NCBI RefSeq assembly: GCF_001412615.1
Contig: NZ_CP013011.1
Coordinates: forward strand, 1 to 32,000
Direction of reading: 5' to 3'
DNA: 32,000 nucleotides
Origin: Pyrodictium delaneyi
Lineage (GTDB): Archaea; Thermoproteota; Thermoprotei_A; Sulfolobales; Pyrodictiaceae
Under the pieces are notes generated by a model that was not told the DNA's origin, did not search any database, and saw nothing but the letters and a program-made list of their open reading frames with translations. Shown piece by piece: positions 8,385 through 28,773 of this stretch (within the stretch, counting starts at the first letter, position 1; each line of letters starts with the position of its first letter). The translations under genes and the position numbers were made by a program.

Positions 8385-8501
8385 TGGCGCCGGGGGCGGG
8401 ATTTGAACCCGCGCGCCCCTCCACGGGGCAGTGGGTCTCCCGACCCCTGGAGCCGGAAAAGGTCTCGAGCCCACCGCCTTGGACCGCTCGGCCACCCCGG
8501 C
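8385..8501 (-). tRNA. tRNA-Ser (anticodon CGA) with an intron of about 27 nt at the canonical 37/38 position (about 8437-8463), CCA encoded
   Basis: Acceptor GCCGGGG/CCCCGGC. D-arm GCCG-AGCGGUCCAA-GGC. Anticodon stem GUGGG/CCCAC with CUCGAG, the intron, then A. Long variable arm UGCCCCGUGGAGGGGCGC. T-arm GCGGG-UUCAAAU-CCCGC. Confidence 0.85.
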
Positions 8502-12803: not shown

Positions 12804-12809
12804 CACATC

Positions 12810-13970
12810 ATGACGCGTTATAATGCTACGGGAGCGATTCACTCGTTAAGAAAGCCGATAGAGGCAAACGACATAATAGCTCCAATAAGTATCTCTGCTA
12901 TATATAGATTCATAGAAGTGACTACGCCTCCTGTAGAGGAAATAAAGTATAGCCGTGAAAACAATCCTACAGTACTGCGGCTAGAAGAGGCCCTTGCCGC
13001 TGCTGAATCAGCTAAATGGTGTTTAGCATTTAACACTGGCATGTCCGCCATATCGGCATTAATGCTCAATGCATTACCCAACACCAAAAGGATCGTAGCA
13101 AGCCGGCTACTATACGGCTCTACTCGCACCCTACTAGAGAAAATTACAAGCCTTCGTGGAGACATAGAATTAGAGTATGCTGGACCGCCCTGGGATGAAC
13201 TACTCTCAGCCATAAAGGGTTCAGACCTAGTATTCATAGAGACTGTTGGTAATCCTACTCTCCGTATACCACCCATAGACGAGATAATCAAGATATGCGG
13301 CCAAGAAGGCTGCACAGTTGTAGTGGACAACACTTTTGCTACACCTGTCATATATAGGCCGGTCGAAGCTGGCGCCGACATAGTAGTTGAGAGTATGACC
13401 AAGTACATAGGTGGCCACAACGACGTACTGGGCGGGCTGCTTTGTAGCAACCATATCAAGCTAAAGGAGAGTATATGGGAATGGAGAAAGCTCACAGGAA
13501 CTATAATACAACCCCTCGATGCATATCTTGTAGCAAGAGGACTAAAGACACTACACCTTAGGGTGAAGTACTCCTCTGAAGCTGCCATGGAAATAGCCAA
13601 ATGGCTAGCAGATAGGCCAGAAGTAGTCAAAGTACATTACCCAGGGCTTCCAGACCACCCAGACCATAGCATAGCTAGCAAGTTGTTCGACGGACTATAT
13701 GGTGGCGTAGTCTCGTTCGAGATAAAGGGCGGTGCTGTGGCTGCCAAGAAATTCCTTAATGCACTAAAGACTATAGTACCCGCACCAAGCCTAGGCGGTA
13801 CAGAGAGTATAGCCACATATCCTTACGAGAGCAGTCACAGGAATCTTAGCGAGGAGGAGAAACGTAAACTCGAGATAACACCAGGGCTCATAAGGCTAAG
13901 TGTGGGTCTCGAGAACGTTGAAGACTTAATAGCTGACATAGAAAATGCATTAAAAACATCGCAAAGCTAA
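12810..13970 (+). CDS. Cys/Met-metabolism PLP-dependent enzyme (cystathionine gamma-synthase/beta-lyase or O-acylhomoserine sulfhydrylase family), 386 aa
   Basis: VVESMTKYIGGHNDVLGG contains the PLP-lysine motif S-x-T-K-Y-x-x-G-H. The gene is adjacent to thrB. Confidence 0.85.
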   Translation: MTRYNATGAIHSLRKPIEANDIIAPISISAIYRFIEVTTPPVEEIKYSRENNPTVLRLEEALAAAESAKWCLAFNTGMSAISALMLNALPNTKRIVASRLLYGSTRTLLEKITSLRGDIELEYAGPPWDELLSAIKGSDLVFIETVGNPTLRIPPIDEIIKICGQEGCTVVVDNTFATPVIYRPVEAGADIVVESMTKYIGGHNDVLGGLLCSNHIKLKESIWEWRKLTGTIIQPLDAYLVARGLKTLHLRVKYSSEAAMEIAKWLADRPEVVKVHYPGLPDHPDHSIASKLFDGLYGGVVSFEIKGGAVAAKKFLNALKTIVPAPSLGGTESIATYPYESSHRNLSEEEKRKLEITPGLIRLSVGLENVEDLIADIENALKTSQS

Positions 13971-14009
13971 GATACTAAACTCTACTCCATTAACACATTA
14001 AGTTAATTC

Positions 14010-14567
14010 TTATTCTACATACTCCCTAAGTATCTTCACTGCTTCGTCGAATAGCTGCGGAGACTCTAGCCCCCGGAGGCCCTCAAGTTTTTCTGCAAGA
14101 CTAGCATCTCTCAATACTGTTCTCACCCATGCCGTTAGATACCCATTCTTAATCACATAGGAGAGTTCTTCGGGACTAACAATCCTATATACAACTATTG
14201 CCGCTAGCTGTTTCGTACTGAATACTCTTAGAGGAACAACCTGGCCCTGGACTACGAAGTAGAATGGCTCAACCATCTCCCGAGTAGGTTTGGCTTCAAC
14301 ATCTTCTCTAGGCTGTTGCCTTTCCTCTTCTATTTTCTCCGTTTCCGTGAAAAGAGCCAAGCCCTTATCGGTTATCTTTACTTTGTTCCCTATTTTTGTG
14401 ACCAGACCGAGTTTTTCCAGTTCCGAGGCATACTTCCTAACCGTAGATGTCTTTATGCCCACGAGCGCTGCGAGTTCACTTACATCGCTCTCCTTTTTAT
14501 CTGCAAGAATTTCGAGTATCTTCCTCTTCGTGGATGTGAGTTCTTTAAAAGACATGTTGATCTGCAC
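14010..14567 (-). CDS. Transcription regulator, N-terminal wHTH plus an uncharacterised C-terminal domain, 185 aa
   Basis: KRKILEILADKKESDVSELAALVGIKTSTVRKYASELEKLGLVTKIGNKVKITDKG. A palindromic TATA, CCTTATAAGG, lies about 40 nt upstream. Confidence 0.7.
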   Translation of the reverse strand: MQINMSFKELTSTKRKILEILADKKESDVSELAALVGIKTSTVRKYASELEKLGLVTKIGNKVKITDKGLALFTETEKIEEERQQPREDVEAKPTREMVEPFYFVVQGQVVPLRVFSTKQLAAIVVYRIVSPEELSYVIKNGYLTAWVRTVLRDASLAEKLEGLRGLESPQLFDEAVKILREYVE

Positions 14568-14743
14568 CCCGCGGGGCTCTGTAGAGGCTATCTACATAAT
14601 CAACTCCTTATAAGGTAATACCATCATGAATGTTTGAGAAAGCAAGTACCCTCTGCCCCAGGCCGCCATAACCCCCATTTTAGACGTGAGCAGCGACAAG
14701 CGTAACAGTAACCACTCTTAAAGGAACTCTACAAGGGGAAGCA

Positions 14744-16798
14744 ATGAAGCTGCATAGTCTGGCTGCAGTAATCCTTTTAGCCACACTAGTCTTGAATCAT
14801 GTGTCGCTCCTCGCTACCTCTATGGAGCCACTATATCAGTGGACTAGCACAGTGGAACTTCAGGTACCAGGTGTAGCATTAACACCCAACGGTTACATAG
14901 GCACCATGTCTAAGCTAATAGTAACTGTTGCATGGCCTGGAAAAGGTATAGTATACTTCTCTGCCGATCCACTAACAGAATTAGATACACAAGCTGCGGC
15001 AAGAATGGCGGCGCTTATAGCATCAATATTAGCTGGCGTAAATTACTATTCATACGACTACTTTATACGTTTAGAGTCAAATACATCTATAGTAGGCGGA
15101 CCCAGTGCGAGCGGCGCTATGGCTGTAGCCATTCTTGCAGCACTACGTGGCATAAATGTACCGACAAACTTCTCCATGACAGGAATGGTTGATCCCGATG
15201 CCACTTTGGGGCCTGTTGGCGGCATCCCACAGAAACTCGAAGCTGCCGCTAGGGCAGGCGTGAAGGTCTTCGTCATACCCATTGGGGAACGCTATAGCAC
15301 GGATCTTAATACGGGCGAGAAAGTAGACATAGTAGCTCTTGGGAGGGAACTAGGCGTCAACGTGATAGAGGCAAGCACTATAGCTGACGCTTATGAGATA
15401 GCAACCGGTGACAAGCTAACTCCCAAAAACGTTACACTCGACATCAGTTACCCGCCATGGCTTGTTTCAAGTCTCAATGAGAGCATTAACTTCTATAAGA
15501 AAACTGCACGCTCGAACATGACGTGTGCCGAGGAAGCACTATCTGGCCTATCAACATCTTTGGCCTCGTCTTTGGTAGATATACTGCGTGATGCCAAGCA
15601 CAATATGGATGTAGGAACAAAACTGGAGGCTGCTGGAAAGCTCTATGCTGCTGCCTCTAGATACTTTGCAGCTGCTATCGAGACAACTTATGCATGCAAC
15701 ACTGCAAAAGCATATAGCTCGACTAACCCACTACAAGTGCTGACGAAATTGTCAATGAGCTATATAAATGAGACAACAGCTATACTCCAAAATGTCGAGA
15801 ACAAGTTCAACGAGTCTCTAAGAGCTAATATGACCTCAATAACTGATGTACAACTTCAACTATACATAGCCTCTATGACTAGACTTCTGGACGCAAATAG
15901 CAGCCTAAACACTGCCTCAGCCCTGCTAGGCATAGCCGAGAAGGCTGCCAGCTACCAAGCATTACAAGCATTGAGTAGAGCGCTACAGGCAGCAATATAC
16001 GCCTATTACAGGGCGTTGACCGCCAACCACTGGCTGACGCTGGCACTGCAAGCCGCAGACGATGGGGAGCCTATCAACCTAGACCTTCTATATAGGAGTG
16101 TAGAGACCTATACTTACTTTGCGGAATCAGCCGTAAACTATCTCCAAACCCTTGGTGTAAACATAGCAGATACAGCTGAGCAAATAGCGCTAGCAAAGGA
16201 TGTAATACAACGAGGCATGGAGAGAAGAGACCCTGTCAAAGTATTACAAGCACTAGCTTACACAGTGAAGGGTTTAGCCGATGTTAATAGCCAGCTCCAC
16301 GCAGTGTTCAATACAGGCATAGCTGTTCTCGATGCATCAAAGAGAAGTCTCTCCGTACTGCTACAAAGACTGGCAGATCTCAATGTCACACTGATACTCC
16401 CACTGCTCTACACAGAGTATGCCGACACGCTGGTTGACGTGAATGCCAAGCTAGGTCTGTATGTACAATCGTCAAGCTACGCATTACTACTTGCTTTAGT
16501 AGCAAATAAGCAAGCAGGAACCCCGATAACTGCTTTACAAGGTGGAGAGAAGTGCTCCTCAGAGACGATGACAGTCACGAAGACAACTACCATAGTAAAC
16601 ACTACTACAACTACAGTTGAAAAGACTATAACAGTTACTAGTACAACTACAACCACTGAGACTATCAGCAAAACCGTAGCTGGAGAGACTGGGTCTACAA
16701 GATCATCGCCAACTCTCCAGCTATTAAGCTACGTACTAGTAGCCGGAATAGCACTGGCTGTGGGTGTTGCATCAGAACGCATGAGAAGACAGCCATAA
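14744..16798 (+). CDS. Secreted, membrane-anchored Lon-like (S16) serine protease-domain protein with a long helical region, Thr-rich stalk and C-terminal TM anchor, 684 aa
   Basis: Signal peptide is AAVILLATLVLNHVSLLA. Lon proteolytic-domain motifs are GGPSASGAMAVAI (Ser) and GPVGGIPQKLEAAARAGVKVFVIP (Lys). Many N-x-S/T sequons are present. TVTKTTTIVNTTTTTVEKTITVTSTTTTTE is followed by LLSYVLVAGIALAVGVA. Confidence 0.75.
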   Translation: MKLHSLAAVILLATLVLNHVSLLATSMEPLYQWTSTVELQVPGVALTPNGYIGTMSKLIVTVAWPGKGIVYFSADPLTELDTQAAARMAALIASILAGVNYYSYDYFIRLESNTSIVGGPSASGAMAVAILAALRGINVPTNFSMTGMVDPDATLGPVGGIPQKLEAAARAGVKVFVIPIGERYSTDLNTGEKVDIVALGRELGVNVIEASTIADAYEIATGDKLTPKNVTLDISYPPWLVSSLNESINFYKKTARSNMTCAEEALSGLSTSLASSLVDILRDAKHNMDVGTKLEAAGKLYAAASRYFAAAIETTYACNTAKAYSSTNPLQVLTKLSMSYINETTAILQNVENKFNESLRANMTSITDVQLQLYIASMTRLLDANSSLNTASALLGIAEKAASYQALQALSRALQAAIYAYYRALTANHWLTLALQAADDGEPINLDLLYRSVETYTYFAESAVNYLQTLGVNIADTAEQIALAKDVIQRGMERRDPVKVLQALAYTVKGLADVNSQLHAVFNTGIAVLDASKRSLSVLLQRLADLNVTLILPLLYTEYADTLVDVNAKLGLYVQSSSYALLLALVANKQAGTPITALQGGEKCSSETMTVTKTTTIVNTTTTTVEKTITVTSTTTTTETISKTVAGETGSTRSSPTLQLLSYVLVAGIALAVGVASERMRRQP

Positions 16799-16827
16799 TA
16801 TGACTAACAGTTCATATGGAGCTAGGC

Positions 16828-17703
16828 CTAAACCCATGGCACGTCCCCGGGATCCTTGACGTTAATCATCACGCTGATTTTTAGCCCGAGACTCTGTAGA
16901 GCTTTACTGACATCCATACTGACACGCTCATAGTCTATTCTTACTGATCTCCGGATAGCCGCTGGATGTGATCTCCTCGGCACCCAGACAGTAATCTCAA
17001 TTTCTACACCATCTGGCATCCTCTTGGAGGAAATGCCTGCAACACTATAGCCCACCATGCTGGCGAGAATACTCGCCGCCTTATACAGCGGTGTATCATG
17101 CATCAAGCTCTCTCTAGCAAGCGCCTCTGGGGTCCTAGAGAGATACACTGCCAGTTCACGCGAAAGCAGGAGCGCATATTCTACACGTGGATCGTCTAAA
17201 TCAAGCTTGTGCAGTTTGTCCTCTAAACCAGCTCTAATCGCCAATGAGTATGCCTGAAGCACTGTACGCTGTGGCAGAGTCTCTATACCGCAGCCCGTAG
17301 CCGTTATAACTTCGGACTCAGCTACAATAGACGGTGCTCCTTTCCGTTTTACCAGCCAGGCCGCAGCTACTACCGAACTCCTACCACATCCGCGGAAGCA
17401 ATGCACAAGTACCGGTTCATCCATCCTTCTAACGATATATGCCAACTCGGGAAGTGTTGGGGCATTGTACTCTCCTATAGGCCGCCAAACTAGCTTAACA
17501 GTACTCCCTAGGCTGCGTGGGTCGTAGCCGCCACCATATACGTGCTCTATGGGTGTTGCCAGCGACACTATGGTGTTAAACATTGAAATTATTTCCTCTA
17601 CATCATCCGGCCTGGGCATTGGAGAGACCGCTATCCGGTTCTTCTCGAGCCAGTACAGCCTAAATCTCGGCGCTATGGAGGGAATAGGCTCCAATCCAGG
17701 CAC
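16828..17703 (-). CDS. Cys-based protein phosphatase (dual-specificity/PTP-like) with an uncharacterised C-terminal domain of about 130 aa, 291 aa
   Basis: VLVHCFRGCGRSSVVAAAWL is the HCx5R(S/T) P-loop. The start lies 3 nt from the stop of the NikR-like gene. Confidence 0.75.
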   Translation of the reverse strand: MPGLEPIPSIAPRFRLYWLEKNRIAVSPMPRPDDVEEIISMFNTIVSLATPIEHVYGGGYDPRSLGSTVKLVWRPIGEYNAPTLPELAYIVRRMDEPVLVHCFRGCGRSSVVAAAWLVKRKGAPSIVAESEVITATGCGIETLPQRTVLQAYSLAIRAGLEDKLHKLDLDDPRVEYALLLSRELAVYLSRTPEALARESLMHDTPLYKAASILASMVGYSVAGISSKRMPDGVEIEITVWVPRRSHPAAIRRSVRIDYERVSMDVSKALQSLGLKISVMINVKDPGDVPWV

Positions 17704-17705
17704 CT

Positions 17706-18152
17706 CTACTCTGTATTCACCTCTACAGTCTTGTTGACTGTTGAGAACGGTATGTATCTTACATTGCAGCCTCTAACTGATGATAGCTTTGTATGCATCT
17801 CAGCTATCTTCCCCGAGGAGCCTTGCACAACGACTATCTCTGTACACAACCCGTTAACATGGATATGCGTAGTACTTAGGATTATATCCTTGTACTCATC
17901 GAGTATAGACGCTACCCTACCCCGGTCAAAGCTGCCAGAGATTATCATAACGCCGCTACACTCGTGGTCATACAGATAATGCTTATACTCGTTTAGAAAT
18001 GACGCTACTGCATGCTCTACGAGCCTAGACCGGTCTGTCCGTAGCCGGGCAGCTAGAGCGTCAAGCTCCTCAGCCATACCGCTGGGGAGAGAGACGCCGA
18101 AACGTCTTCTCCGAGTCAACACTGTATACCTCCTATCGGGATTTAGCCACAA
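17706..18152 (-). CDS. NikR-family metal-responsive regulator (RHH plus ACT-like metal-binding domain), 148 aa
   Basis: RRFGVSLPSGMAEELDALAARLRTDRSRLVEHAVASFL forms the RHH. The C-terminal region GVMIISGSFD...TTHIHVNGLCTEIVVVQGSSGKI follows the NikR H-x-H...C pattern. Confidence 0.7.
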   Translation of the reverse strand: MWLNPDRRYTVLTRRRRFGVSLPSGMAEELDALAARLRTDRSRLVEHAVASFLNEYKHYLYDHECSGVMIISGSFDRGRVASILDEYKDIILSTTHIHVNGLCTEIVVVQGSSGKIAEMHTKLSSVRGCNVRYIPFSTVNKTVEVNTE

Positions 18153-18996
18153 AGGCTACGTAAATGAGGAGCATGACTAGACCGGTTGCACCTGCGGGGG
18201 ATAACCCCAGCATAAGGCTGAGTATGAGGCCTAGCCCGGCAGCGATCAGGGCTGTGGAGACTGATAGTAGTATAGCTTCACGGGCACTACGCGCATACAT
18301 TGACGCCGCTGCACCAGGTAGTAGTATGAGGACGTGTTCCAGGACGAAGCCTACTATTTGAACCATTGTACTTACTACCACACCGACCATCGTGAAGAAG
18401 ATTAGATCATGGAGCCATACTGGCATTCCTGTTATCTTCGCCAGATCCCTCTCAACGCCTAGGTATATCTGCTCTCTGTAGCTTAGTACAACTAGTATAC
18501 ATACTGCTAGAGCCGTAACTACAGCTATCCATGCCTCCCACGAGCTTACGAGCAGTGGGTCACCAAATACTATTGATGTTATGTCTGCCCCACCCGCTGT
18601 TGTCTTGGCGTAGTAGGCTAGTATGACGCTAGTAGAGGCCGAGAAAGAGACGAGAACCGAGGTGGCTATGTCGGGTTCCACACCACTAAATATCATATAG
18701 CCAGCCATATATACTAGCAGTACCGTCACGACTATCGTTGATATGTACGCTGAGGTATTCATACTGCCTGTCACTAGTATTGCTAGAAGTGCAGCTAGCA
18801 AAGCCGAGTGAGGAGTAGCCCCAGCAAGGAAGAAGAGTTTACGTGCTGCAACTAGGGCACTCAGCAACCCGAAGGCTAGCCCAGCAGCAAGTACAGCTAA
18901 CGCCGGGTACACTGATATCCGGACATAATACATTGATAGCGACAAAATGGCAAGGATAGTGGCTATGACGAATACAACGACTTCTGCAATTCTCAA
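18133..18996 (-). CDS. ABC-3 family metal (Zn/Mn/Fe) transporter permease, 287 aa
   Basis: Highly hydrophobic multi-TM protein. It lies between a TroA-like binding protein gene and the regulator, opposite the ABC ATPase gene. Confidence 0.8.
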   Translation of the reverse strand: MRIAEVVVFVIATILAILSLSMYYVRISVYPALAVLAAGLAFGLLSALVAARKLFFLAGATPHSALLAALLAILVTGSMNTSAYISTIVVTVLLVYMAGYMIFSGVEPDIATSVLVSFSASTSVILAYYAKTTAGGADITSIVFGDPLLVSSWEAWIAVVTALAVCILVVLSYREQIYLGVERDLAKITGMPVWLHDLIFFTMVGVVVSTMVQIVGFVLEHVLILLPGAAASMYARSAREAILLSVSTALIAAGLGLILSLMLGLSPAGATGLVMLLIYVAFVAKSR

Positions 18997-20004: not shown

Positions 20005-20802
20005 GTGCAGGAAACATGTAAAGCAAAGGAGGTAGAACTCGTATCAGTTGAGGTATCGTTCAACTCTACTAAGGTACTTGAGGTAAACCATCTCCGCTTA
20101 CAAGGGCCTGCCTTAGTGCAGGTGCTCGGCCCTAACGGTGCAGGAAAGACTACTCTATTGAAGACTATTCTGGGCCTCATTAGTCCTAGGAGAGGCCATG
20201 TCTTTGTATGTAGAGACAGTACGACAGGAAGACCGGATAGGGCTGGCCGTTTTATAGGCTATGTTCCTCAGCTTATTACCACCCTTAACCATTTCCCGGT
20301 AACTCCATGGGAAATAGTAGAGTACGAGATTATGGCGCGTAGTAGGAGTACACCTTTTCCCGGGAGAACAGGGAGCATTAGGGGCCGTGTAGAGGCCTCC
20401 TTGAGGGCTGTAGGCCTCCAGCCAGATGCTTGGTTTAAGCCTCTCCGCAGCCTTAGTGGCGGTCAGCGGCAACGTGCCTTTATAGCCAGAGCGCTTGTCC
20501 ACGATCCTCCGATACTGTTGATGGATGAGCCGTTCTCCGCTGTCGATCCTGGAGGGAGGGTTGAGCTAGCAAAGCTAATAGCTTCGCTAGCTCGTAATCG
20601 CCTCGTCATAGTAACTAGTCATGATCCTATGCTTTTAATAGACTATACTGACCTAGTAGTCCTTGTTAACCGCAGAGTAGTAGCCGTTGGCGAGCCCCAT
20701 GATGTGCTGAGAGAAGACATACTAGTAGAGGTTTATGGCGCCGCTATACTCCGTGTCGGAGATCATATACATATCAGTGATGAGCATAGAATAGTTGGCT
20801 AA
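20005..20802 (+). CDS. Metal ABC transporter ATP-binding protein, about 265 aa from GTG 20005
   Basis: Walker A is GPNGAGKTTL, the signature is LSGGQRQR and Walker B is ILLMDEP. The track ORF start (19738) overlaps the opposite-strand gene. GTG 20005 lies about 35-40 nt after the TATA. Confidence 0.85.
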   Translation: MQETCKAKEVELVSVEVSFNSTKVLEVNHLRLQGPALVQVLGPNGAGKTTLLKTILGLISPRRGHVFVCRDSTTGRPDRAGRFIGYVPQLITTLNHFPVTPWEIVEYEIMARSRSTPFPGRTGSIRGRVEASLRAVGLQPDAWFKPLRSLSGGQRQRAFIARALVHDPPILLMDEPFSAVDPGGRVELAKLIASLARNRLVIVTSHDPMLLIDYTDLVVLVNRRVVAVGEPHDVLREDILVEVYGAAILRVGDHIHISDEHRIVG

Positions 20803-20835
20803 CAGTACAAAGCTCTAGCTCTTAACATACTCTTT

Positions 20836-21702
20836 ATGCACTCACGGGGAAAGGAGCTGAGGAATGAGGCCATGAACCGCCGGTGCAGCCCGGATCTTGT
20901 CCTAGCAGATAACGCTCTAACGAGAGCCTTGAGAGATGCTCTAAAAGCTGTAAAAGATGAGTATCCCCTTCTCGATGAAAGTGTTGAAGAGATAGCTGTG
21001 TCTCGGAGGTTTACCCTTGTCCGGCTAGCCGGTGGAAGTATAGGTATCGCTTTCTCTGGCGAGTATGAACCGCCGCCAGAGGAGCTTATACTTGGGAGTG
21101 TTACTGTCTCTGAGCTAGCCCAATATGCGTGGAGACATCCTAGCCTCACTAGCCTCGCACTCGCCGCTGCAAACGCTGCTACCAATGTGTTGGTCGAAAA
21201 GAAGCCCCACTTGGAGGGTCTCATGTACGATAGAGATGTTGTTGACGTGGTTAATCCGGGGCCAGAGGAGTCTATAGCTCTTGTGGGATATGTACGAGGC
21301 ATTGCACGCAAACTGGCCACGAGAGCAGGCAAGATTGTAGTCTACGAAGATAATCCCGTGCACCGGGCCTTTGCCCGCGAGGACGGGTTCATCACGTATC
21401 CGGGTAGTCAACTACTCCTAGACGCAGAAGACTATGATGTCATAATAGCTACTGGGGCAAGCCTTCTAGACCCTCGCATCATCGCCGTGTTCGCTAACGC
21501 AAAGAGGGCCCGTCTACGTGGCTTTGTCGGCCCGACATCGAGCTTCCATATAGCGGCTGCCAGACCTCTAGGTGCCGACTTCATAGCAGGGATAAGCATT
21601 CCTAGCAGCCACAGAGATACCGTGGCAAGACTCGTTAAGGCAGGCTACGGGTTTAAGCGTATATCACGCTTCGCGACGAAATGGATATGGTTACCGCCAT
21701 AA
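20836..21702 (+). CDS. Putative DUF4213/DUF364-like (heavy-metal-chelation Rossmann-like) protein, 288 aa
   Basis: A pattern such as VSRRFTLVRLAGGSIGIAFS is followed by a Rossmann-like IALVGY...VIIATGASL region. The genomic context is next to the metal transporter. The family assignment comes from memory of the family pattern only. Confidence 0.45.
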   Translation: MHSRGKELRNEAMNRRCSPDLVLADNALTRALRDALKAVKDEYPLLDESVEEIAVSRRFTLVRLAGGSIGIAFSGEYEPPPEELILGSVTVSELAQYAWRHPSLTSLALAAANAATNVLVEKKPHLEGLMYDRDVVDVVNPGPEESIALVGYVRGIARKLATRAGKIVVYEDNPVHRAFAREDGFITYPGSQLLLDAEDYDVIIATGASLLDPRIIAVFANAKRARLRGFVGPTSSFHIAAARPLGADFIAGISIPSSHRDTVARLVKAGYGFKRISRFATKWIWLPP

Positions 21703-22030
21703 CTGCCGCTTTGGGTAGGCGAGGCCTGGAGCAGCGAAATAGTCAATAGCATCGGAAACCAGGAGAACATGGTATTCTTGGGGGCGATGAGGAGCGGTCA
21801 CGGGACGGACCGCCCTCTGACCAGGAGACACGGCGGGCTGGTATGAGGAGCGCATTCCTTGTCCGAGGCCCTCCTAGAGCCCAGCGATATAACTGGGCAA
21901 GCATTATTCTAGGGTCTTCCACCTAGTGGATGAGGAGTGCCGAGTTCGCTGATGGATGCCCCGCGCGGCATAGCAGCCAGCTGATGAGGCCCTTGTGCAG
22001 GCTTCGAGCCGACACTTCACGGCTAGCCTG

Positions 22031-22735
22031 CTACCTACCCTTCACGATACTGTATATTATCTTCTCTACCTCGCTCCGCTCTACCTCATTGACCGGCGGC
22101 CTCCTGCCTACTGTGCAGCCTGCCTCTATTCTCCCGCGGCTACAGTACATAGCCTCACTTAGCTGCCCTCTAAGTTCGGCTGGCGGCAGTATCGCTGCCG
22201 CACGTAGATCGCCCTTACGCACATCCTTGAGGTTCGTGACTATGGTGTAGGTGAATATGCCCCGGGCACGCGTTATGTATAGGTTATCAGCATTAGGATG
22301 CTTAGCCACGCTGAGCACTTCAACACACTCGATATCCACCGCATAGAGGGGATCATTGTCGTCTCCCAAGCTCAGTCTTGCTGGGAGACCGTAGAGCGTC
22401 CTTATCGCATACTTTATCTCTGCTATAGTATGCCTGGTCTTCTGGTCTATCTGAGTCTTCTCCAGCCATTCCCGAGGCAGTAGTATTGCTGCTAGCTCCC
22501 GGGAGAGTTCCTGTAGTTTCTTGGTCGGCTCGCTATGGGCTAGCATAGTGGGCGGCATGAAGCTGAACTTTATCTGCATTAGCGTCGAGCGGACTTCGCC
22601 GTGTAGCTCGAGTGCTTTCTTCCAGTTGACTGGTATCGGTAGCTTCTTCGCCCTTATGATGGACTCCAGCATGCCTAGAGCGTGCTCAGCTACGAGTATC
22701 CTGTAATCGCTACGCGTATCACTCACGACTAGCAC
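22031..22735 (-). CDS. Protein with an uncharacterised helical N-domain (about 130 aa) fused to a C-terminal tRNA-binding OB-fold (Trbp111/CsaA/EMAP-II-like), 234 aa
   Basis: VEVLSVAKHPNADNLYITRARGIFTYTIVTNLKDVRKGDLRAAAILPPAELRGQLSEAMYCS matches the HPNAD(K/N)LY...G...V...P.A.L.G..SEGM pattern of tRNA_bind domains. Confidence 0.7.
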   Translation of the reverse strand: MLVVSDTRSDYRILVAEHALGMLESIIRAKKLPIPVNWKKALELHGEVRSTLMQIKFSFMPPTMLAHSEPTKKLQELSRELAAILLPREWLEKTQIDQKTRHTIAEIKYAIRTLYGLPARLSLGDDNDPLYAVDIECVEVLSVAKHPNADNLYITRARGIFTYTIVTNLKDVRKGDLRAAAILPPAELRGQLSEAMYCSRGRIEAGCTVGRRPPVNEVERSEVEKIIYSIVKGR

Positions 22736-22759
22736 CCCGGAGAGGATATTCTCTCTCCG

Positions 22760-23104
22760 TTACTCCTCCATCTCGGCGAGTCGTTCAAGGGCTAGACGCA
22801 TCTGTGCATACACTATGGGCTTCTTCGCTGTTATCTTCTGCACGAGTTCCTCGACGCTCTTAGCAAAGCTATAGAGGCCGTAGGGCGTGTAGAATACTTC
22901 GCTACAGTGCCACATGTGGGGTTTTAGTGACCCTTCGGCAACAGTCTTTGCATATATCCAGTCGTAGTAGCTGGCTACGGCTATGAGTACACCATCCCCG
23001 TCCCCACAGTATATTAGTGAGCATTCACTGCCGCTCTCTACCTCCACAGCTTTGCTGCAGGCCCCAGCCTTTCTTAGTTCCTCGATGAGCAATTCCGCCG
23101 ACAC
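22760..23104 (-). CDS. Hypothetical protein, 114 aa (GTG start, GGGGAG upstream)
   Basis: ORF with balanced composition, 25 nt upstream of the tRNA-binding-domain gene. Confidence 0.55.
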   Translation of the reverse strand: MSAELLIEELRKAGACSKAVEVESGSECSLIYCGDGDGVLIAVASYYDWIYAKTVAEGSLKPHMWHCSEVFYTPYGLYSFAKSVEELVQKITAKKPIVYAQMRLALERLAEMEE

Positions 23105-23236
23105 ACTCTCCCCTAGTGAAACCAGGCATGCCTAGCAGAAGAAGTCTATGTACCTAATTCTACTCACCGAGGAAGGGCCTCTAGAGGATAGTCAACCACA
23201 GGGATATGGGTAAAATAGAGGAACTGGACGCCAGCG

Positions 23237-24355
23237 CTAGTAGGCCCTGATGCTGCATTGTGCGATGCCGCGTCTGCATAGCCGTAGGGCTGCTTGGAGG
23301 TATTGCTCGCCGCGCTCGTACACCTCTATGAGGTCTATTACGTCTCTCTCTACTAGGTCTATTAGGAGCTCTTCTTCAATCCTTGTTAGACCTAGCTGCT
23401 CTCTACCTATCGCTGCTACCTCTATGCTCTCAGCGAGGCTGAGCGGCGCTTGGCTTATACCCGCAGCGGCAGCTATCCTCGAGGACAACTTCTCTATGAG
23501 CCGCTGCATGTTGCTAAGCTTCTCGTAGGCTTTACGCACGTTAGCCGCTACTAGCCCCAGCTCTTCTAGGTCGTTGGCTTCGCGGAGCGTCTCAGCAGCA
23601 TCATATGCTGATATGACGCTTGTGAGCACTTGTGATAGCCACCTACAATACGGAGCCTCTGGCCCCATACGCTCGCGGCACATTTGTAGCGCTTCTGAGA
23701 GGTCGGCTAGGCTCGAGGTTAGCGTGTCAAGCAGCTGAGCTATCTCTGTAAGCCTTGACGTGACTGTTTCGAGGTGAGCTAGGCTCGTATCTAGACTATC
23801 GGAGCCGACCAGTCTAGCTACTAACATTACTATGTCGTGAACCTTTGCTATTTCCTTTGACTCTAGTCTACGGGCCGCCTCGTATACCTGGACTAGCTGT
23901 TTGCTAATGCTCTCCCACCGGGTTGCGATACGCTCCGCGTTATTAATCAAGTCTCCAGCTCTCTCGGCACCCGCTGATAGCAGCGAATACACTATCGGCG
24001 TTAGAGGTCCACCCGCTCTCACTACTGCTACAAGTAGTCCCATGCTCTGAGGTGATGGACACTCCTCGACATCAAGCGTAGACCCCGTAATGCTGTGCGC
24101 GAGTACCCGGAGTACGCGCTGGCACGCTGTCAGCGACGCCTCGCGTGCCTTGTCATAGTTTGATGCTGCTGTGTAGTCCTTAACAGAGCGTAGTAGATGC
24201 GCTACTTCTTGTCGTAGGCTTTCTGGCGCAACTTGCAGTGCTGTATTTACAGCTTCTATGTTCCCTGCTATCTCTTTCAGCGTCTCCTCTATGCTCTGTT
24301 GAGAGCTTAGCATTGCCTCGTATTCTTGGACTAACTTCTCTAAAGCCCACGCCAC
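23237..24355 (-). CDS. All-alpha, coiled-coil-like protein, 372 aa, partner of the large NTPase
   Basis: The start lies 6 nt after the stop of the 908-aa gene. The sequence is Leu/Ala/Glu-rich and heptad-like throughout. The C-terminal about 50 aa (LGLTRIEEELLIDLVERDVIDLIEVYERGEQYLQAALRL) may form a small helical or wH module. Confidence 0.7.
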   Translation of the reverse strand: MAWALEKLVQEYEAMLSSQQSIEETLKEIAGNIEAVNTALQVAPESLRQEVAHLLRSVKDYTAASNYDKAREASLTACQRVLRVLAHSITGSTLDVEECPSPQSMGLLVAVVRAGGPLTPIVYSLLSAGAERAGDLINNAERIATRWESISKQLVQVYEAARRLESKEIAKVHDIVMLVARLVGSDSLDTSLAHLETVTSRLTEIAQLLDTLTSSLADLSEALQMCRERMGPEAPYCRWLSQVLTSVISAYDAAETLREANDLEELGLVAANVRKAYEKLSNMQRLIEKLSSRIAAAAGISQAPLSLAESIEVAAIGREQLGLTRIEEELLIDLVERDVIDLIEVYERGEQYLQAALRLCRRGIAQCSIRAY

Positions 24356-24361
24356 AGGTAA

Positions 24362-27088
24362 TCACCCTACTATGGCTTCTTCCCTAGCCTCTTTGCGTGC
24401 TTGGTCAACGAGAGGTTGAGATGGAATAATTCGGTCTATGGCCTCGATTATCTTACTCTTGAGCTCTTCAATTCCTGAACCACCTTTCTCGGAGAGCATC
24501 TTCAGCTTGTTCACTAGGCTGACTGCCGTGGATAGGTACTGGACAGCTTCAGCGAGACTGCTCATATTGGATAGATCACTAGTTATCGCCTCTAGCGCTT
24601 TCTTACGCAGCTTGTCAGGCAGCTCCTCGAGGTTAGCCTCGAGGCTTCCATAGATCCTATAGACGGCGGCTAGGTCCTCGGCCAGCTTAGATGCCACAGT
24701 ACCTATAGGCGATACAACCATTGCTGCTATGGAGAGTGCTGCTGAATTGCTTCTTGCTATTTCCTCGGCTTTGGACACTATTGCTTTCATCTCTTCTATG
24801 ATGTTTGCTGCCTCCTCTAGGACGCCGGCGCGGGGGACGTGTTCAACATAGGCTGCTAGTCTCTCTGCCAGTGATGATATCTCGCTGAGACCGGCTTCCG
24901 GCTGGTACTCTTCTAGGCCCAGCAGTATTGCTACTAGCCGTGCTATGCTGGGGCCACGTGCCTGGCCACGTTCTCCACAAGAGGGTGATACGCGCCCTAC
25001 GAGCGTGTACCCTTTCTCCTCAAGCTCCTCGTAGATTTCGGCTATACTGCTGTAAGCCTTGGAGACAGGTTTTGTCCTGGAAGCGCTGTAGTCTACACCA
25101 GCTATTCTAGATGCTTTCTCGGCTAGTGAGCGTGCCCGTTGCTGTAGCGTTGCAAGCTCCGACACTATCTTCCCGGCCGGCTCGGGGCCTAGATCACGAA
25201 TCAATGCTGCAACTGCATAGCCTATCTCACCATAGTCTTGCTCCACGACGTGAGCCCGAGTCTCTATGCTGGCCAGCTCCTGGCCAGCCTTGGAGGCGAG
25301 TACCTCTATCACTAGGCTACGTAGGAGGTCTGCGTAGAGGTTCACCGTCCGCCGGTCGTGACCGGTTAGGTTCTCTGGCAGACACCCAGCAGTTGCTATG
25401 GAGAAGCCATAGAGGAGTGAGTATACGAACAGGCTTAGCCGCGGCCCTGCTTCGACCACCAGGCTCCCGGTGAGGGCCGCAGCAGCCTCCAGCAGCCGCG
25501 GCACTTGTTTCTCTCGTCGTCCAGCATCCGGCTCTATGACGAGTACTACTAGAGGCTCTCCTGAGAGCATTTTGCAAGCGAGTTCTTGGGCATAGGATTG
25601 CAGGCTACGAGCCGGGGCTACTACTAGCTTCAGCCCCCGCTTTTCGAGAAGCTCGTTGAGGCCCAGGAACTCTGAGAGCCTAGAACTATACTCCATTAGC
25701 TCGCCGAGCGCTAGGCTGTTAACAACCTCCACTACCTGGCTTGGACCGGTTCTCCGGGCACAACCTACTAGGGGCGAGCTACTTGCCATCGGGTAGAGTC
25801 GCGCCACCATGCTGGGCCGTAGCGCTGCTACCGGCTCGCTGAATCTCTCTATAGGCGGACTCAAGAGATCGGGGTTCAAGGCTTCAATAAGCTGGGCAGC
25901 GTGGGGATCATCACCATATATCTCCCGGGCGACATCTGCAGCTATTGTGAATAGCTCGCGCAGCGCCTGCGGGTCGTATACTATGAGCCCGTCCCGGCTC
26001 CACGCCAGCGCCGCATGCTCTAGCGCCGAGACAGCATGCTCGACCGAGGAGGCCTGGAAGCCCTTCGCACGCGCATAACGCGTCATCCAAGCCTCTGCTT
26101 CAGAGAGGAGATCTTCTACACGGACCGCCGTCCTAGAGTAGACTACAGCAAGGTTAGCCTCGGGCAGAACCTCGTAGCCTAGCAGCCTGCTTAGCAGTGA
26201 GAGAGGAACAGGGCCCGGGAGGACCGCGAGGAGCGGAATCATCTTCTTGTCCTCTATGAGCCTGCGGACCTCCCGGTAGCCTGTTTTGTCGAAGAGGGGT
26301 ACCCCCTCCACTATCTCGCGTGCAAGCGCTTCCTCGCCGAGAAGAACCGTTTCAACATGTTCGGGACCCTGCTTGAGCGCTGCAGCGAGCTTACCGACCA
26401 CTGTGTCTACTAGCATGCGGGCCCACGCTATACGTCCCTTGGAAGCCCACCACACCATGTTAGCGAGGAGGCTTGCAGCATCAGCCAGTTCACCGCCTAG
26501 GATCTCAACTACCATGCGCTCTATTACGGGCTTAGGGAGTAATGGAAGCGTGAATATCCTGCTACGCCACGCTACGGGGCCAAAGACGGCCTCCTTGAGC
26601 GTTGAAGAGGGGCCGAGGGCCAGCACCACGTATACTTTGGTGCTATGAGTTCTTATGGCCTCAGCCACGCCACGGAAGGGCGATGTCTCGTACTCAACAA
26701 TACCTCTCAGCAGGTCATAGCTCTCCTCGACTTCATCCACAAGGAGGACAACAACCCCACTTGCCTCGCCGAGCTTTTCCCGGGCATACTCCTCTAGTAT
26801 CCTGGGCAGCTCCGACTCATGAACACTACCATAGCGTTCAACTATGTACTCCACTATGTCTGCTAGCTCAACCCGAAGCGCTGCTGCACCAATACTCTTT
26901 GCAAAGGTCTCTAGGTGCCGTAGAAGCGTAGTCTTGCCGGATCCATAGGGAGCCACAACCACCGGCATCCAGTACTCGTCGGCACCACCCTCAACATAGC
27001 TACGAATTAACCCCTCAAGCTCAACTCTTATCCGTCGATGCTCCTCGCTTAAATCACACCATCCCGTTTCAAGACAGCCGGGCTCCAA
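24362..27088 (-). CDS. Large P-loop NTPase, 908 aa: N-terminal AAA/ORC- or BrxC/PglY-like ATPase core, large helical middle and C-terminal regions (TTG start)
   Basis: Walker A is VVVAPYGSGKTTLL. Walker B is VVVLLVDEVEE, about 70 aa later. No TM segments and no nuclease, methylase or protease motifs were recognisable by eye. Confidence 0.8.
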   Translation of the reverse strand: MEPGCLETGWCDLSEEHRRIRVELEGLIRSYVEGGADEYWMPVVVAPYGSGKTTLLRHLETFAKSIGAAALRVELADIVEYIVERYGSVHESELPRILEEYAREKLGEASGVVVLLVDEVEESYDLLRGIVEYETSPFRGVAEAIRTHSTKVYVVLALGPSSTLKEAVFGPVAWRSRIFTLPLLPKPVIERMVVEILGGELADAASLLANMVWWASKGRIAWARMLVDTVVGKLAAALKQGPEHVETVLLGEEALAREIVEGVPLFDKTGYREVRRLIEDKKMIPLLAVLPGPVPLSLLSRLLGYEVLPEANLAVVYSRTAVRVEDLLSEAEAWMTRYARAKGFQASSVEHAVSALEHAALAWSRDGLIVYDPQALRELFTIAADVAREIYGDDPHAAQLIEALNPDLLSPPIERFSEPVAALRPSMVARLYPMASSSPLVGCARRTGPSQVVEVVNSLALGELMEYSSRLSEFLGLNELLEKRGLKLVVAPARSLQSYAQELACKMLSGEPLVVLVIEPDAGRREKQVPRLLEAAAALTGSLVVEAGPRLSLFVYSLLYGFSIATAGCLPENLTGHDRRTVNLYADLLRSLVIEVLASKAGQELASIETRAHVVEQDYGEIGYAVAALIRDLGPEPAGKIVSELATLQQRARSLAEKASRIAGVDYSASRTKPVSKAYSSIAEIYEELEEKGYTLVGRVSPSCGERGQARGPSIARLVAILLGLEEYQPEAGLSEISSLAERLAAYVEHVPRAGVLEEAANIIEEMKAIVSKAEEIARSNSAALSIAAMVVSPIGTVASKLAEDLAAVYRIYGSLEANLEELPDKLRKKALEAITSDLSNMSSLAEAVQYLSTAVSLVNKLKMLSEKGGSGIEELKSKIIEAIDRIIPSQPLVDQARKEAREEAIVG

Positions 27089-27177
27089 TCAGAGAGTCCC
27101 CTTAGCGAGAAATACTGTCTAACCGCCAAGCCGGAGTAGTAAAAACCCTCAGACCCATACACCTTCCTTGACTGGAA

Positions 27178-27253
27178 GTGATGACCCCGCGCCTCCAGAG
27201 CCCAGATCAGCTATTCCGGGCAATCGGGCTGTGAAGAGGGTCTTGAGTGCTGA
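27178..27253 (+). ncRNA. Candidate C/D-box sRNA in a 490-bp ORF-free region
   Basis: Canonical C box GUGAUGA (27178-84), then a 12-nt GC-rich spacer CCCCGCGCCUCC. An internal stem pairs AGCCC with GGGCU. C'-like GUGAAGA (27231-37) is followed by an exactly 12-nt spacer and a canonical D box CUGA (27250-53). The D' box is degenerate and the terminal stem is weak. Confidence 0.35.
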
Positions 27254-27577
27254 TCTACAAAACACGAGAAGAATTCTGGCCATAAACGCTGTTATGGCGC
27301 TAATTACTCATTGCTCTGCACCACCCAGCTGATAGAGGAGCAAAACGCTCACTTCTCTATCTACCACTGCCTTTAACCTAGCACGGATAACACAATGTGC
27401 TGTCCTAGACCAGCTATAATACAACCATCAAGATCCGCATCGTGAATTTGAGAAGCGTGAAGCCATGCTACCGTGATAGTTGGAGAAAAGAGGCCGAAAC
27501 ACATAATGAATGTTGCCACTAAAGGTGTAGCAGGCGGGTTAGAGCTTCCATAGACGAGTAATAGGTTGTTGAAATGA

Positions 27578-27955
27578 TTATTCTTCTACTTTTACGTCTT
27601 TGTGTGTCTCCCATACTCCATGGAGGTTGCAGTAGCTTAGGACGTAGAGTGTACCACTCTTCTCCAGCCTTATGGTTATCGTTATCTCTGGCTCTGCGTA
27701 GACGGGCTCTAGGTCTATCGTCGCTATGTGTATTGGGTTGAATGCGCGGCCCTCTTCGCTGAACCAGATCTCTATGCGGCGTATCGAGTGCTGTACCTGG
27801 TTGGGGTGCGGACCTACCTTTATTGTTATCTTGAAGGGTTCGCCCTTCTTGACTGTGTCTGGTGCCTCGATCTTAGGCGCATGTGTCTCTGCCTTAGAGG
27901 CAGCCGGGCCCGTTGTCTCGGGTGTGTATATTAGTTCTCCGAATGGCTTGGCCAT
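27578..27955 (-). CDS. sor: Superoxide reductase (1Fe-SOR / neelaredoxin type), 125 aa
   Basis: ETHAPKIE, GPHPNQVQHSIRRIEIW and SYCNLHGVWE match the E-K-H-x-P, H-P-x...H and C-N-x-H-G-x-W iron ligand motifs. Confidence 0.9.
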   Translation of the reverse strand: MAKPFGELIYTPETTGPAASKAETHAPKIEAPDTVKKGEPFKITIKVGPHPNQVQHSIRRIEIWFSEEGRAFNPIHIATIDLEPVYAEPEITITIRLEKSGTLYVLSYCNLHGVWETHKDVKVEE

Positions 27956-28062
27956 GACTATCGGCCTCCAGTTTAACAGGAGTTAACTAGCGTTGGATAA
28001 AAGTGTAGCGGGCATCAGAGCGTTTTTAGGAGAAGTAAGTGCTGTAAGGGTGGCTCTAGTCC

Positions 28063-28773
28063 TTGGAGATCGTATTAGAGGTGCCAGTGTTCAGAGAGTG
28101 TCTGATTGTCCGAAGGCTTAACCGCTTCGTGATCGAAGTCGAGATAAATGGTTCTAGAGAGATGGCCCATAACACGAATACTGGGCGGCTCACAGACGTG
28201 CTTGTACCCAAGCGTACCGGGTTATGCATACCGCTAAAGAGGCCGAGAAGGACGCGGTTCCGCCTGTTTGCTGTCGAGTATCGGGGCGGCTACGCCATTA
28301 TCGATACTCGGCTGCAGGAGGATGCATTCGCTGCTGCTGTGGACCGTGGACTTCTCCCGTGGGCCACCAGCTGCCATGTAGCTTCTAGGAGGCCGCAACT
28401 CGGCTCCTCAGTACTCGACTTCCTACTAGACTGCAACGGCTCGGAGATCTATGTTGAGACTAAGAGTGCTGTACTCATGGGCCCTGGAGACATTGCTATG
28501 TACCCCGACTGCCCTACTGAACGAGGCCGAAGACACATACGCGAGATAATAGCGCATGCTAAGAGAGGCGTGAAGATAGCGCTAGTGTTCATCGCCGCCT
28601 TGCCGGGCGCCCGGGGGTTCACACCTAACCCGGAAGGTGACCCGGAGATTCCCGGCCTCGTGCGAAGAGCTGTAGAGGCTGGTGTAATTGTCAAGGCTCT
28701 GGGGCTTGATTTTGATGCTGGGCGGCGAGGGGTCAGGCTTTATGCTCCTAGTCTCCCAGTTGTACTTGCCTAA
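28063..28773 (+). CDS. sfsA: SfsA family protein (sugar fermentation stimulation protein homolog / nuclease-fold), 236 aa (TTG start)
   Basis: RRLNRFVIEV, AHNTNTGRL, YVETKS and the C-terminal HIREII region match the SfsA family pattern. Confidence 0.8.
   Translation: MEIVLEVPVFRECLIVRRLNRFVIEVEINGSREMAHNTNTGRLTDVLVPKRTGLCIPLKRPRRTRFRLFAVEYRGGYAIIDTRLQEDAFAAAVDRGLLPWATSCHVASRRPQLGSSVLDFLLDCNGSEIYVETKSAVLMGPGDIAMYPDCPTERGRRHIREIIAHAKRGVKIALVFIAALPGARGFTPNPEGDPEIPGLVRRAVEAGVIVKALGLDFDAGRRGVRLYAPSLPVVLA

Follow-up and report, generated by a model that had tools for sequence, protein, structure and literature searches.

The described systems that stand closest to the locus treated here are Dpd, BREX and DISARM. 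In the three bacterial dpd clusters that were fetched for comparison, DpdH (1038-1078 amino acids, aa) is followed by an overlapping DpdI (217-282 aa), by DpdJ and then by DpdK, with DpdK directly next in one of the three. DpdHI has been described as BrxC-like (preprint 10.1101/2025.09.15.676423), and in BrxC itself the Walker A and B motifs lie ~190 residues apart (PMC13326643), as against 66 in the protein described below. Here we describe a two-gene operon of Pyrodictium delaneyi, situated within positions 1-32,000 of NZ_CP013011.1 (the window, on which all coordinates of the locus are based), that encodes a 908-aa AAA+ ATPase and a 372-aa helical partner. Together these represent a protein family that is recognised by neither domain nor defence databases, and the pair descends from a lineage tied to a helicase/PLD cassette that is found beside deazaguanine genes.

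The evidence for this ancestry comes from the closest outgroup ATPases, which are 1009-1118 aa long, 25-31% identical to the window protein and found in Thermofilum, Vulcanisaeta, Caldivirga, Candidatus Culexmicrobium and one Pyrodictiaceae metagenome-assembled genome (MAG). Their loci share a gene order in which the ATPase is followed by the partner, a helicase of ~930 aa, a protein of ~820 aa and then, where the contig continues, a PLD protein of ~240 aa. The helicase matches the PADLOC model for DpdJ at 3.7e-50, as against 2e-16 for DrmA; the gene after the helicase matches the following part of the DpdJ model, and the PLD protein matches DpdK (2e-10, again in PADLOC). In each of the six outgroup loci the pair is directly followed by orthologous N and C parts of the helicase. 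TGT and DUF6884 are found nearby in three of the six, QueF, DUF2400 or a Vut_1 transporter stands beside some of them, and the Caldivirga cassette locus has an integrase. As the outgroup order matches that of dpd, the pair can be said to hold the DpdH-DpdI slot of a Dpd/DISARM-like restriction cassette, and the Thermoproteota cassette as a whole looks like an undescribed class of that type.

In a neighbour-joining tree built from 453 columns of the conserved N-terminal region, with 200 bootstraps, the short, pair-only proteins form a monophyletic clade with 100% support, and this clade groups with the cassette-type sequences of Thermoproteota with 100% support as well. The cassette types alone do not form a monophyletic group (1%), and the short clade is placed as sister to the Thermofilum type with 76% support. 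The Pyrodictiaceae clade is nested within a cassette-bearing grade, and the pair-only state is therefore most simply derived by loss.

The two open reading frames (ORFs) are exactly those that an earlier note, made from the sequence alone, had claimed. Their products are 100% identical, over the full length and in their starts, to annotated hypothetical proteins of P. delaneyi, the partner being Pyrde_0032, and a literature search found no paper naming Pyrde_0031-0033. The P-loop motifs that had been reported near the N-terminus of the ATPase are also where they were said to be, APYGSGKTTLL occupying aa 46-56 and LLVDEVEE aa 115-122, so that K52 and D118 are 66 residues apart. Conservation was assessed in two alignments, one of 36 close sequences and one of 23 diverse members that range from Pyrodictium to haloarchaea and bacteria; in both, the Walker A motif APYGSGKT (K52) and the Walker B motif LLVDEVEE (D118, E119) are invariant or nearly so. 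In the 23-member alignment L115, D118, E119, E121, G159, R175, W213, W214 and R219 are invariant, and W10, H17, G51, K52, P137, R139, E166, N210, G218 and W222 are nearly so. The family can thus be diagnosed by a signature made up of W..D..H, Walker A and B, PLR and N..WW..GR.GW.

An AlphaFold2 (AF2) model of the ATPase, built from 36 homologues, has a mean predicted local distance difference test score (pLDDT) of 86.4. When this model was compared with the PDB using Foldseek only the first ~300-350 residues were matched, the matches being to RuvB, Cdc6, RFC, spastin, FtsH and p97 (probability 1.0, E 8e-6 to 4e-4, TM about 0.4-0.5 on the target), and in a viral structure library only clamp loaders and generic AAA+ proteins were found. 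On the strength of these matches the N-terminus is taken to be an AAA+ module of the classical kind, carrying a helical lid that is modelled at aa 186-256. The fold is established here, and the model has two hallmarks of AAA+ membership, namely Walker motifs within one alpha/beta domain and a core-lid arrangement; the ORC/AAA-like N-terminus that had been suggested is therefore upheld in the form of an ORC/Cdc6/RuvB-type module. R175, at the end of the helix after the sensor-1 strand, is a candidate arginine finger, and R219, which lies in the GR at the start of a lid helix and is held within the signature N210..W213 W214..G218 R219..W222, is a candidate sensor 2. If these assignments are right, ATP hydrolysis would need oligomerisation.

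Beyond the lid the model places three short helices and a beta hairpin in the order H268-277, H283-289, H296-303 and E315-323, and the unit that they form at aa ~262-325 is probably a winged helix; the RuvB and Cdc6 matches, which span 310-356 columns, reach past the lid. The part of the protein that follows the P-loop core had been described as about 750 aa of mostly helical sequence with no recognisable effector, transmembrane or nucleic-acid enzyme motif. The AF2 model shows that this part is not plain helix: it includes the lid, the winged-helix-like unit and mixed alpha/beta domains (aa 326-570), after which come about 330 aa of coiled coil (aa 577-908), where PDB profile matches are coiled-coil noise only.

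The partner had been predicted to be all-helical, and it has a confident AF2 model (pLDDT 89.9, predicted template modelling score 0.79) that is indeed helical throughout. A Foldseek search of the PDB with this model gave no significant match (best E 0.34), and it was for this reason that the idea of the partner being a kleisin was dropped. Homology between the partners of different loci is full-length (E 3e-13 to 7e-84), with a pairwise identity of 20-41% between genera. All Thermoproteota partners carry the C-terminal motif L-x-L-C-x-x-G-h-x-x-C-x-V, preceded by short helices, and a Cys-less form of it is found in a bacterial partner; this C-terminus resembles a winged helix. Five cysteines are nearly invariant in the partner alignment (C78, C226, C237, C360 and C367) and an E-C-P at C98 is frequent. 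The cysteines fall into three close pairs, C78/C98, C226/C237 and C360/C367, which could serve as disulfide staples, as is typical of hyperthermophiles, or as metal ligands.

The two genes form an operon. As had been claimed, 6 nt separate the stop of the ATPase gene (TGA, 24364-24362) from the GTG of the partner gene (24355), and the stop is overlapped by GGTGA, the usual core of a crenarchaeal Shine-Dalgarno sequence, an arrangement that fits co-translation of the two. The translational coupling proposed earlier is further borne out by the conservation of the unit, with the partner following the ATPase across loci. In relatives the junction varies from a 17-nt overlap to a 48-nt spacer, and in every locus examined the partner gene (330-560 aa) either overlaps the ATPase gene or starts within 50 nt of it. 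Co-occurrence of the two genes elsewhere was checked with a hidden Markov model (HMM) of the partner, which gave a match of 207-422 bits downstream of the ATPase in 16 of the 16 non-redundant close-clade loci that have sequence there, a pairing well in excess of chance. The HMM reaches the Thermofilum type (54 bits) and, weakly, that of Vulcanisaeta (25-28 bits). It does not reach the haloarchaeal or bacterial neighbours, with reversed-sequence controls scoring up to 18 bits, and because their scores are in the noise these distant "partners" are regarded as positional analogues only.

Scans of both window proteins against Pfam, NCBIfam and PADLOC gave nothing above cut-off, so that the description of the two as uncharacterised still holds. 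The ATPase has sub-threshold P-loop matches only (AAA_22, NACHT, AAA_16 and nSTAND5); matches to ATG17, LmuB, JetC, SMC, SpiroCoCo and mad8 were sub-threshold coiled-coil noise and were treated as compositional. Searches of PDB sequences with the single sequence, a full-length profile and an N-terminal profile returned only coiled-coil or generic P-loop matches. Twelve distant members, made up of four diverged loci and eight distant representatives, have no match to a curated family at E<=0.01 and the family is therefore unannotated throughout.

A word-indexed search of 5.8 billion proteins found 43 relatives, all with source names in the Thermoproteota. The exhaustive profile search of 1.84 billion cluster representatives gave about 188 clusters at E<=1e-10, most of them of 1000-1200 aa and matching over their N-terminal 230-380 residues, the rest being coiled-coil noise. 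Further members came from GTDB species representatives, a scan of which turned them up in haloarchaea, Desulfobacteraceae, Dehalococcoidia, a Firmicutes MAG and others, and the family is sparse in both archaea and bacteria. The surroundings of the distant members are of the conflict type: an N6/N4 DNA methylase lies directly downstream in Halobellus, a GHKL ATPase lies downstream in a Desulfobacteraceae MAG, and PIN and integrase genes are found beside the member in the Firmicutes MAG. Distant members are also found on haloarchaeal plasmids, where the ATPase is split in two. In Haloquadratum walsbyi PL100 (L037 12001-18198) and in L038 (11980-17251) the two ATPase genes encode about 550-570 aa each and precede a further pair of genes, every one of them being annotated as hypothetical.

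The neighbourhood of the pair is identical in three Pyrodictium genomes, running from HAD, SfsA and superoxide reductase through the ATPase, the partner, a gene for a 114-aa protein and a tRNA-binding protein to DUF364, ABC and ZnuA, and Hyperthermus keeps the core of it, which points to stable vertical inheritance among housekeeping genes. An association with defence islands, which had been raised as a possibility, is thus contradicted for the Pyrodictium/Hyperthermus module. Between P. delaneyi and H. butylicus the identity of the ATPase is 73-78% over aa 1-300, 58-65% over aa 300-600 and 24-34% over the coiled coil (aa 600-900); the partner is 41% identical and the neighbouring tRNA-binding protein 60%. 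Judged by these identities the catalytic core is under strong constraint, and the coiled coil and the partner drift or co-evolve. In H. butylicus (CP000493, L001 10718-11841) the partner is split into ORFs of 43 aa and 318 aa in different frames; either the gene is frameshifted or the finished genome contains a sequencing error.

Unusually long ORF-free regions had been reported on both sides of the pair. The one upstream, given as 490 bp, is real, measuring 489 bp, though it contains a conserved C/D box small RNA (sRNA) gene and a conserved promoter-like block; the one downstream, given as 330 bp, is found two genes further on, and the actual flank is 132 nt, followed by the gene for the 114-aa protein. 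This protein carries conserved C..C....C and H-M-W-H-C residues, is 52% identical to its H. butylicus counterpart, and has no family match in Pfam or NCBIfam. Its gene adjoins the pair in Pyrodictium, Hyperthermus and two MAGs, and the loci where this is so include L002, where it is on the opposite strand, L023, L049 and L050/51. The protein was also considered as a relative of DUF123 and rejected on sequence comparison, the two being unrelated.

In two lineages (L003 11665-12159; L005 11776-12273) a DUF123 gene shares about 22 nt with the 3' end of the partner gene. Its product has the motifs G-x-Y-x-Y-x-G-S-A, R-x-x-R-H and W-H-I-D and a C-terminal Cys cluster, and DUF123 is probably COG1833. 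The latter is an archaeal GIY-YIG family of repair candidates, the description of which matches the DUF123 motifs (PMC1564403). The third gene of L018 was likewise considered as DUF123 and rejected on sequence comparison. In L003, which is a MAG, a run of about ten small ORFs (72-261 aa), mostly on one strand and with no Pfam match, lies downstream of the pair (12462-18157) and may be an integrated element.

Alignment of upstream regions of 370-490 bp from four genomes revealed three nearly invariant blocks in DNA that is otherwise unalignable. Two of these blocks, read on the opposite strand, make up the sRNA gene, which is a canonical archaeal one and consists of a C box GUGAUGA, a guide CCCCGCGCCUC, a D' box CAGA (CUGA in two loci), a variable loop, a C' box GUGAAGA, a second guide GGGUCUUGAGUG and a D box CUGA. 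It is present in 12 Pyrodictiaceae loci, among which the D guide hardly varies and the D' guide shows high conservation. The sRNA is not in Rfam, which has no match in 20500-28500. Because another gene parts the sRNA from the ATPase in some genomes, it is regarded as an independent gene. The complement of its D guide, CACUCAAGACCC, resembles the anticodon stem-loop of tRNA-Leu(CAA), which would predict methylation at C34; no target of either guide was found in the window. In 9 loci of several genera the third block, GTCTGAGGGTTTTTAC, ends 46-74 nt short of the ATPase start, on its upstream side. These loci include L010, where the sRNA is 1.2 kb away, as well as L011 and L016, for which the sequence covered showed no sRNA. 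It is probably the promoter of the operon and, as it is longer than a bare TATA box, may include the site of a regulator.

Two further observations concern other parts of the window. Positions 1-1000 have a G+C content of 66%, compared with about 45-58% in the rest of the window, and an Rfam scan gave no RNA gene there. At 8388-8501, on the minus strand, lies an intron-containing tRNA with the anticodon loop CU-CGA-GA, that is tRNA-Ser(CGA), which is found by Rfam and missed by ARAGORN and which adjoins tRNA-Leu(GAG).

Table 1. Features of the P. delaneyi locus, in window coordinates, and positions of the outgroup cassettes in their own loci
Feature	Coordinates	Strand	Basis
AAA+ ATPase gene, 908 aa, TTG start	24362..27088	-	ORF including stop; AF2 model and family alignments
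ATPase aa 1-256: W10-D12-H17 motif, AAA+ alpha/beta core, helical lid	26321..27088	-	columns invariant or >=90% conserved in 23 members
ATPase aa ~262-325: winged-helix-like unit (putative), three short helices and beta hairpin	26114..26305	-	AF2 secondary structure; inferred assignment
ATPase aa 326-570: helical and small alpha/beta domains, moderately conserved	25379..26113	-	AF2 secondary structure
ATPase aa 577-908: coiled coil, fast-evolving, candidate partner-binding or dimerisation arm	24365..25360	-	AF2 long helices
Shine-Dalgarno-like GGTGA overlapping ATPase stop	24362..24366	-	read from sequence
Partner gene, 372 aa, all-helical, GTG start	23237..24355	-	ORF call, AF2 model, homology across loci
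Partner aa ~307-372: winged-helix-like C-terminal segment (putative)	23240..23437	-	fold inferred; motif conserved
114-aa Cys/His-rich protein gene, possible third component	22760..23104	-	conserved neighbour of pair
C/D box sRNA gene, divergent from ATPase	27178-27253	+	two conserved blocks
Conserved 16-nt block GTCTGAGGGTTTTTAC(T), probable BRE/TATA promoter of operon	27138..27154	-	
Outgroup cassette loci	L004 4267-15916; L007 1182-15903; L026 5651-17890; also L025, L027, L031		gene-order scans

We tentatively favour the view that the pair is a DNA-directed ATPase-adaptor complex which stems from a restriction cassette and which has been retained for DNA surveillance in the Pyrodictiaceae, a view to which we would give somewhat less than an even chance. 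On this view the operon would give rise to a heteromeric complex of an AAA+ ATPase with a coiled-coil arm and a helical adaptor that ends in a winged-helix-like domain. The ATPase would bind ATP and oligomerise on DNA by means of its AAA+ and winged-helix parts, and the arm would hold the partner. The ancestral complex may have read the status of DNA and then loaded or licensed the helicase-nuclease; in the Pyrodictiaceae the helicase, nuclease and modification genes have been lost, and the pair persists as a stand-alone unit that is vertically inherited. The Pyrodictium complex would still act on DNA, its retained role being either nuclease-free as in BREX or dependent on an effector that is encoded elsewhere.

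Several points weigh against this view. Neither the 32-kb window nor the sequence up to 8 kb from any short-clade locus contains a homologue of the helicase, the PLD protein or TGT, or any other nuclease, methylase or modification gene. Homology to DpdH or BrxC was brought out neither by HMMs nor by a PDB search with the family profile, and the Foldseek top 50 gave no sign of it. Strict synteny amid housekeeping genes, as is seen across Pyrodictium and Hyperthermus, is atypical for defence genes, and a quick divergence of coiled coils is expected even without an arms race.

Much of this would be accommodated if the pair had been recruited, after the helicase and nuclease were lost, to housekeeping DNA maintenance such as repair, replication restart or chromosome organisation, perhaps together with a small nuclease or with the 114-aa Cys/His protein. 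This explanation, which we consider unlikely if still a serious contender, would account for the strict synteny, the vertical inheritance and the housekeeping flanks, for the conserved promoter block, and for an ATPase core that is better conserved than its housekeeping neighbour (73-78% vs 60%); the DUF123 gene with its GIY-YIG-like motifs, overlapping the partner 3' end in two lineages, and the conserved 114-aa gene that adjoins the pair in others would supply the additional component. However, the DUF123 association is limited to those two lineages and the equivalence with COG1833 is only probable, the frameshifted partner gene of H. butylicus suggests that this gene is dispensable, the family is found only in Pyrodictiaceae-like lineages and a few MAGs and so is not order-wide, and the pair resembles no repair or chromosome-organisation factor yet known. 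The same frameshift, along with the loss of effector genes, might be taken to mean that the pair is a decaying, functionless remnant of a lost defence cassette. It would seem most improbable that this is so: at least 15 lineages keep both ORFs intact, variation at the catalytic residues is absent or almost absent, identity between genera is still 73-78% over the N-terminal 300 aa, and the upstream promoter block is conserved. A wider proposal, which we regard as doubtful, is that the pair belongs to an undescribed and ancient AAA+/adaptor module, thinly spread across archaea and bacteria and partly plasmid-borne, which acts as an exchangeable DNA-sensing front end and has been domesticated in the Pyrodictiaceae. 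Were this true the module would serve different effectors, with YprA helicase/PLD and 7-deazaguanine in Thermoproteota, a DNA methylase in the haloarchaeon and a GHKL ATPase in Desulfobacteraceae, and an immune sensor would have been turned into a housekeeping factor in hyperthermophilic archaea.

The earlier note had also likened the large protein to the STAND ATPases, and an NTPase of this or the abortive-infection kind would use its helical C-terminus to sense a viral protein with the partner as the toxic effector. There are weak, sub-threshold matches to NACHT, AAA_16 and nSTAND_NTPase5 around the P-loop, and the C-terminal half and the partner do evolve fast, but NACHT scored 13.4 bits vs a cut-off of 26.7 and nSTAND_NTPase5 12.9 vs 34, and the best Foldseek matches were RuvB, Cdc6, RFC and spastin rather than Apaf-1, NLR or Avs, with no STAND protein in the top 50. 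No family match to STAND-type C-terminal repeats (TPR, WD40 or LRR) or to an effector domain was found, the C-terminus being a coiled coil. The partner, which has no structural match, also lacks enzymatic, pore-forming or transmembrane features. Membership of the STAND group is not supported, and a STAND-like role is given very little credence. Hardly more plausible is a cytoskeletal, segregation or SMC-like system in which the coiled coils are structural, a possibility that had been put forward as well and for which no evidence was obtained. Long coiled coils are present in both proteins and give noise-level coiled-coil matches to SMC, Rad50, LmuB and JetC, all of which are compositional. The two Walker motifs, both inside aa 46-122, belong to a single N-terminal AAA+ domain and are not divided by a coiled coil as they are in the ABC-type head of SMC/Rad50; moreover the partner has no kleisin-like match and no ParA, ParB, SMC or actin-like genes are found nearby.

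The Thermoproteota cassette appears to join 7-deazaguanine DNA modification, a split YprA helicase and a PLD nuclease, and if this is confirmed deazaguanine-based discrimination of self from non-self would be extended to hyperthermophilic crenarchaea. The Pyrodictiaceae pair is a natural minimal version, one that could show either what proteins in the BrxC/DpdHI position do on their own or how a part of a defence system is exapted.

When the known systems are compared in turn, the best structural matches are to ORC/Cdc6, RuvB and RFC, which share an AAA+ core, a lid and a winged-helix-type domain with aa ~1-320 of the ATPase. These matches are weak (E 1e-5 to 1e-4, 10-19% identity, TM 0.4-0.5 on target) and cover a third of the protein, and these proteins have no counterpart to W..D..H, PLR, N..WW..GR.GW, the 590-aa C-terminal extension or the obligatory partner. 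With DISARM (DrmA, DrmB, DrmC) the outgroup cassette shares a helicase and its C-terminal module as separate genes together with a PLD nuclease, a hallmark of DISARM, whereas the DISARM core has no comparable AAA+/partner pair, the outgroup helicase is far closer to DpdJ, and the window has none of these genes.

The resemblance to BREX lies in architecture, since BrxC/PglY too has an AAA+ ATPase and a winged helix at the N-terminus, alpha/beta and helical or coiled-coil regions at its centre and an arm at the C-terminus, although the window system divides the function over two genes. The link to BREX-type ATPases that had been suggested survives as one of genomic position, with the outgroup in the DpdH-DpdI slot, and homology to BrxC/PglY itself was not detected by HMMs, by the PDB profile search or in the Foldseek top 50. 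The models DUF499 and BrxC_BrxD, along with the NCBIfam and PADLOC models of BrxC, gave no match to the window ATPase (E<=0.1-1). The PDB set contains the BrxC structures 9zdx, 9zll and 9zn5, yet none of them is among the best 60 profile matches (E<=0.4) or in the Foldseek top 50. Among the neighbours scanned around the window pair there is no PglZ, PglX, BrxA, BrxB, BrxL or methyltransferase, and no PglZ or methyltransferase was seen in the related loci examined.

It is Dpd that the outgroup cassette recalls most fully in order and sizes, with a big P-loop protein, a smaller gene, a DpdJ-type YprA helicase and a PLD protein; three of the six outgroup loci lie near a TGT/DpdA-like gene, and QueF or a preQ0-transporter gene stands beside some. 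The differences are that the partner is larger than DpdI (330-440 aa vs 217-282 aa), that the outgroup helicase is split in two, as in DISARM, that none of DpdE, DpdF, DpdG and DpdD was seen in the outgroup loci, and that the window clade is without J, K and TGT, the H-I-J-K order and TGT being found only in the outgroup (L004, L007, L026 and others). In PADLOC neither the ATPase nor the partner has a Dpd match in the window, L004, L027, L028, L030 or L034, while DpdJ and DpdK next door were recognised in the same run, and in NCBIfam the window pair and eight distant members have no such match. Comparison by hhalign, with DpdH and DpdI profiles built from the fetched plasmid genes, gave a probability of 65% for the ATPase against DpdH (E 6e-5, 73 columns), 0.2% for the partner against DpdI, the profiles being shallow, and 6-17% for the ATPase against BrxC, over Walker A only, in a test that is without power because its positive control, BrxC against DpdH, reached only 17%. 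Taken by analogy the pair may be thought of as working like BrxC and DpdH, in the same genomic slot and outside the membership of either.

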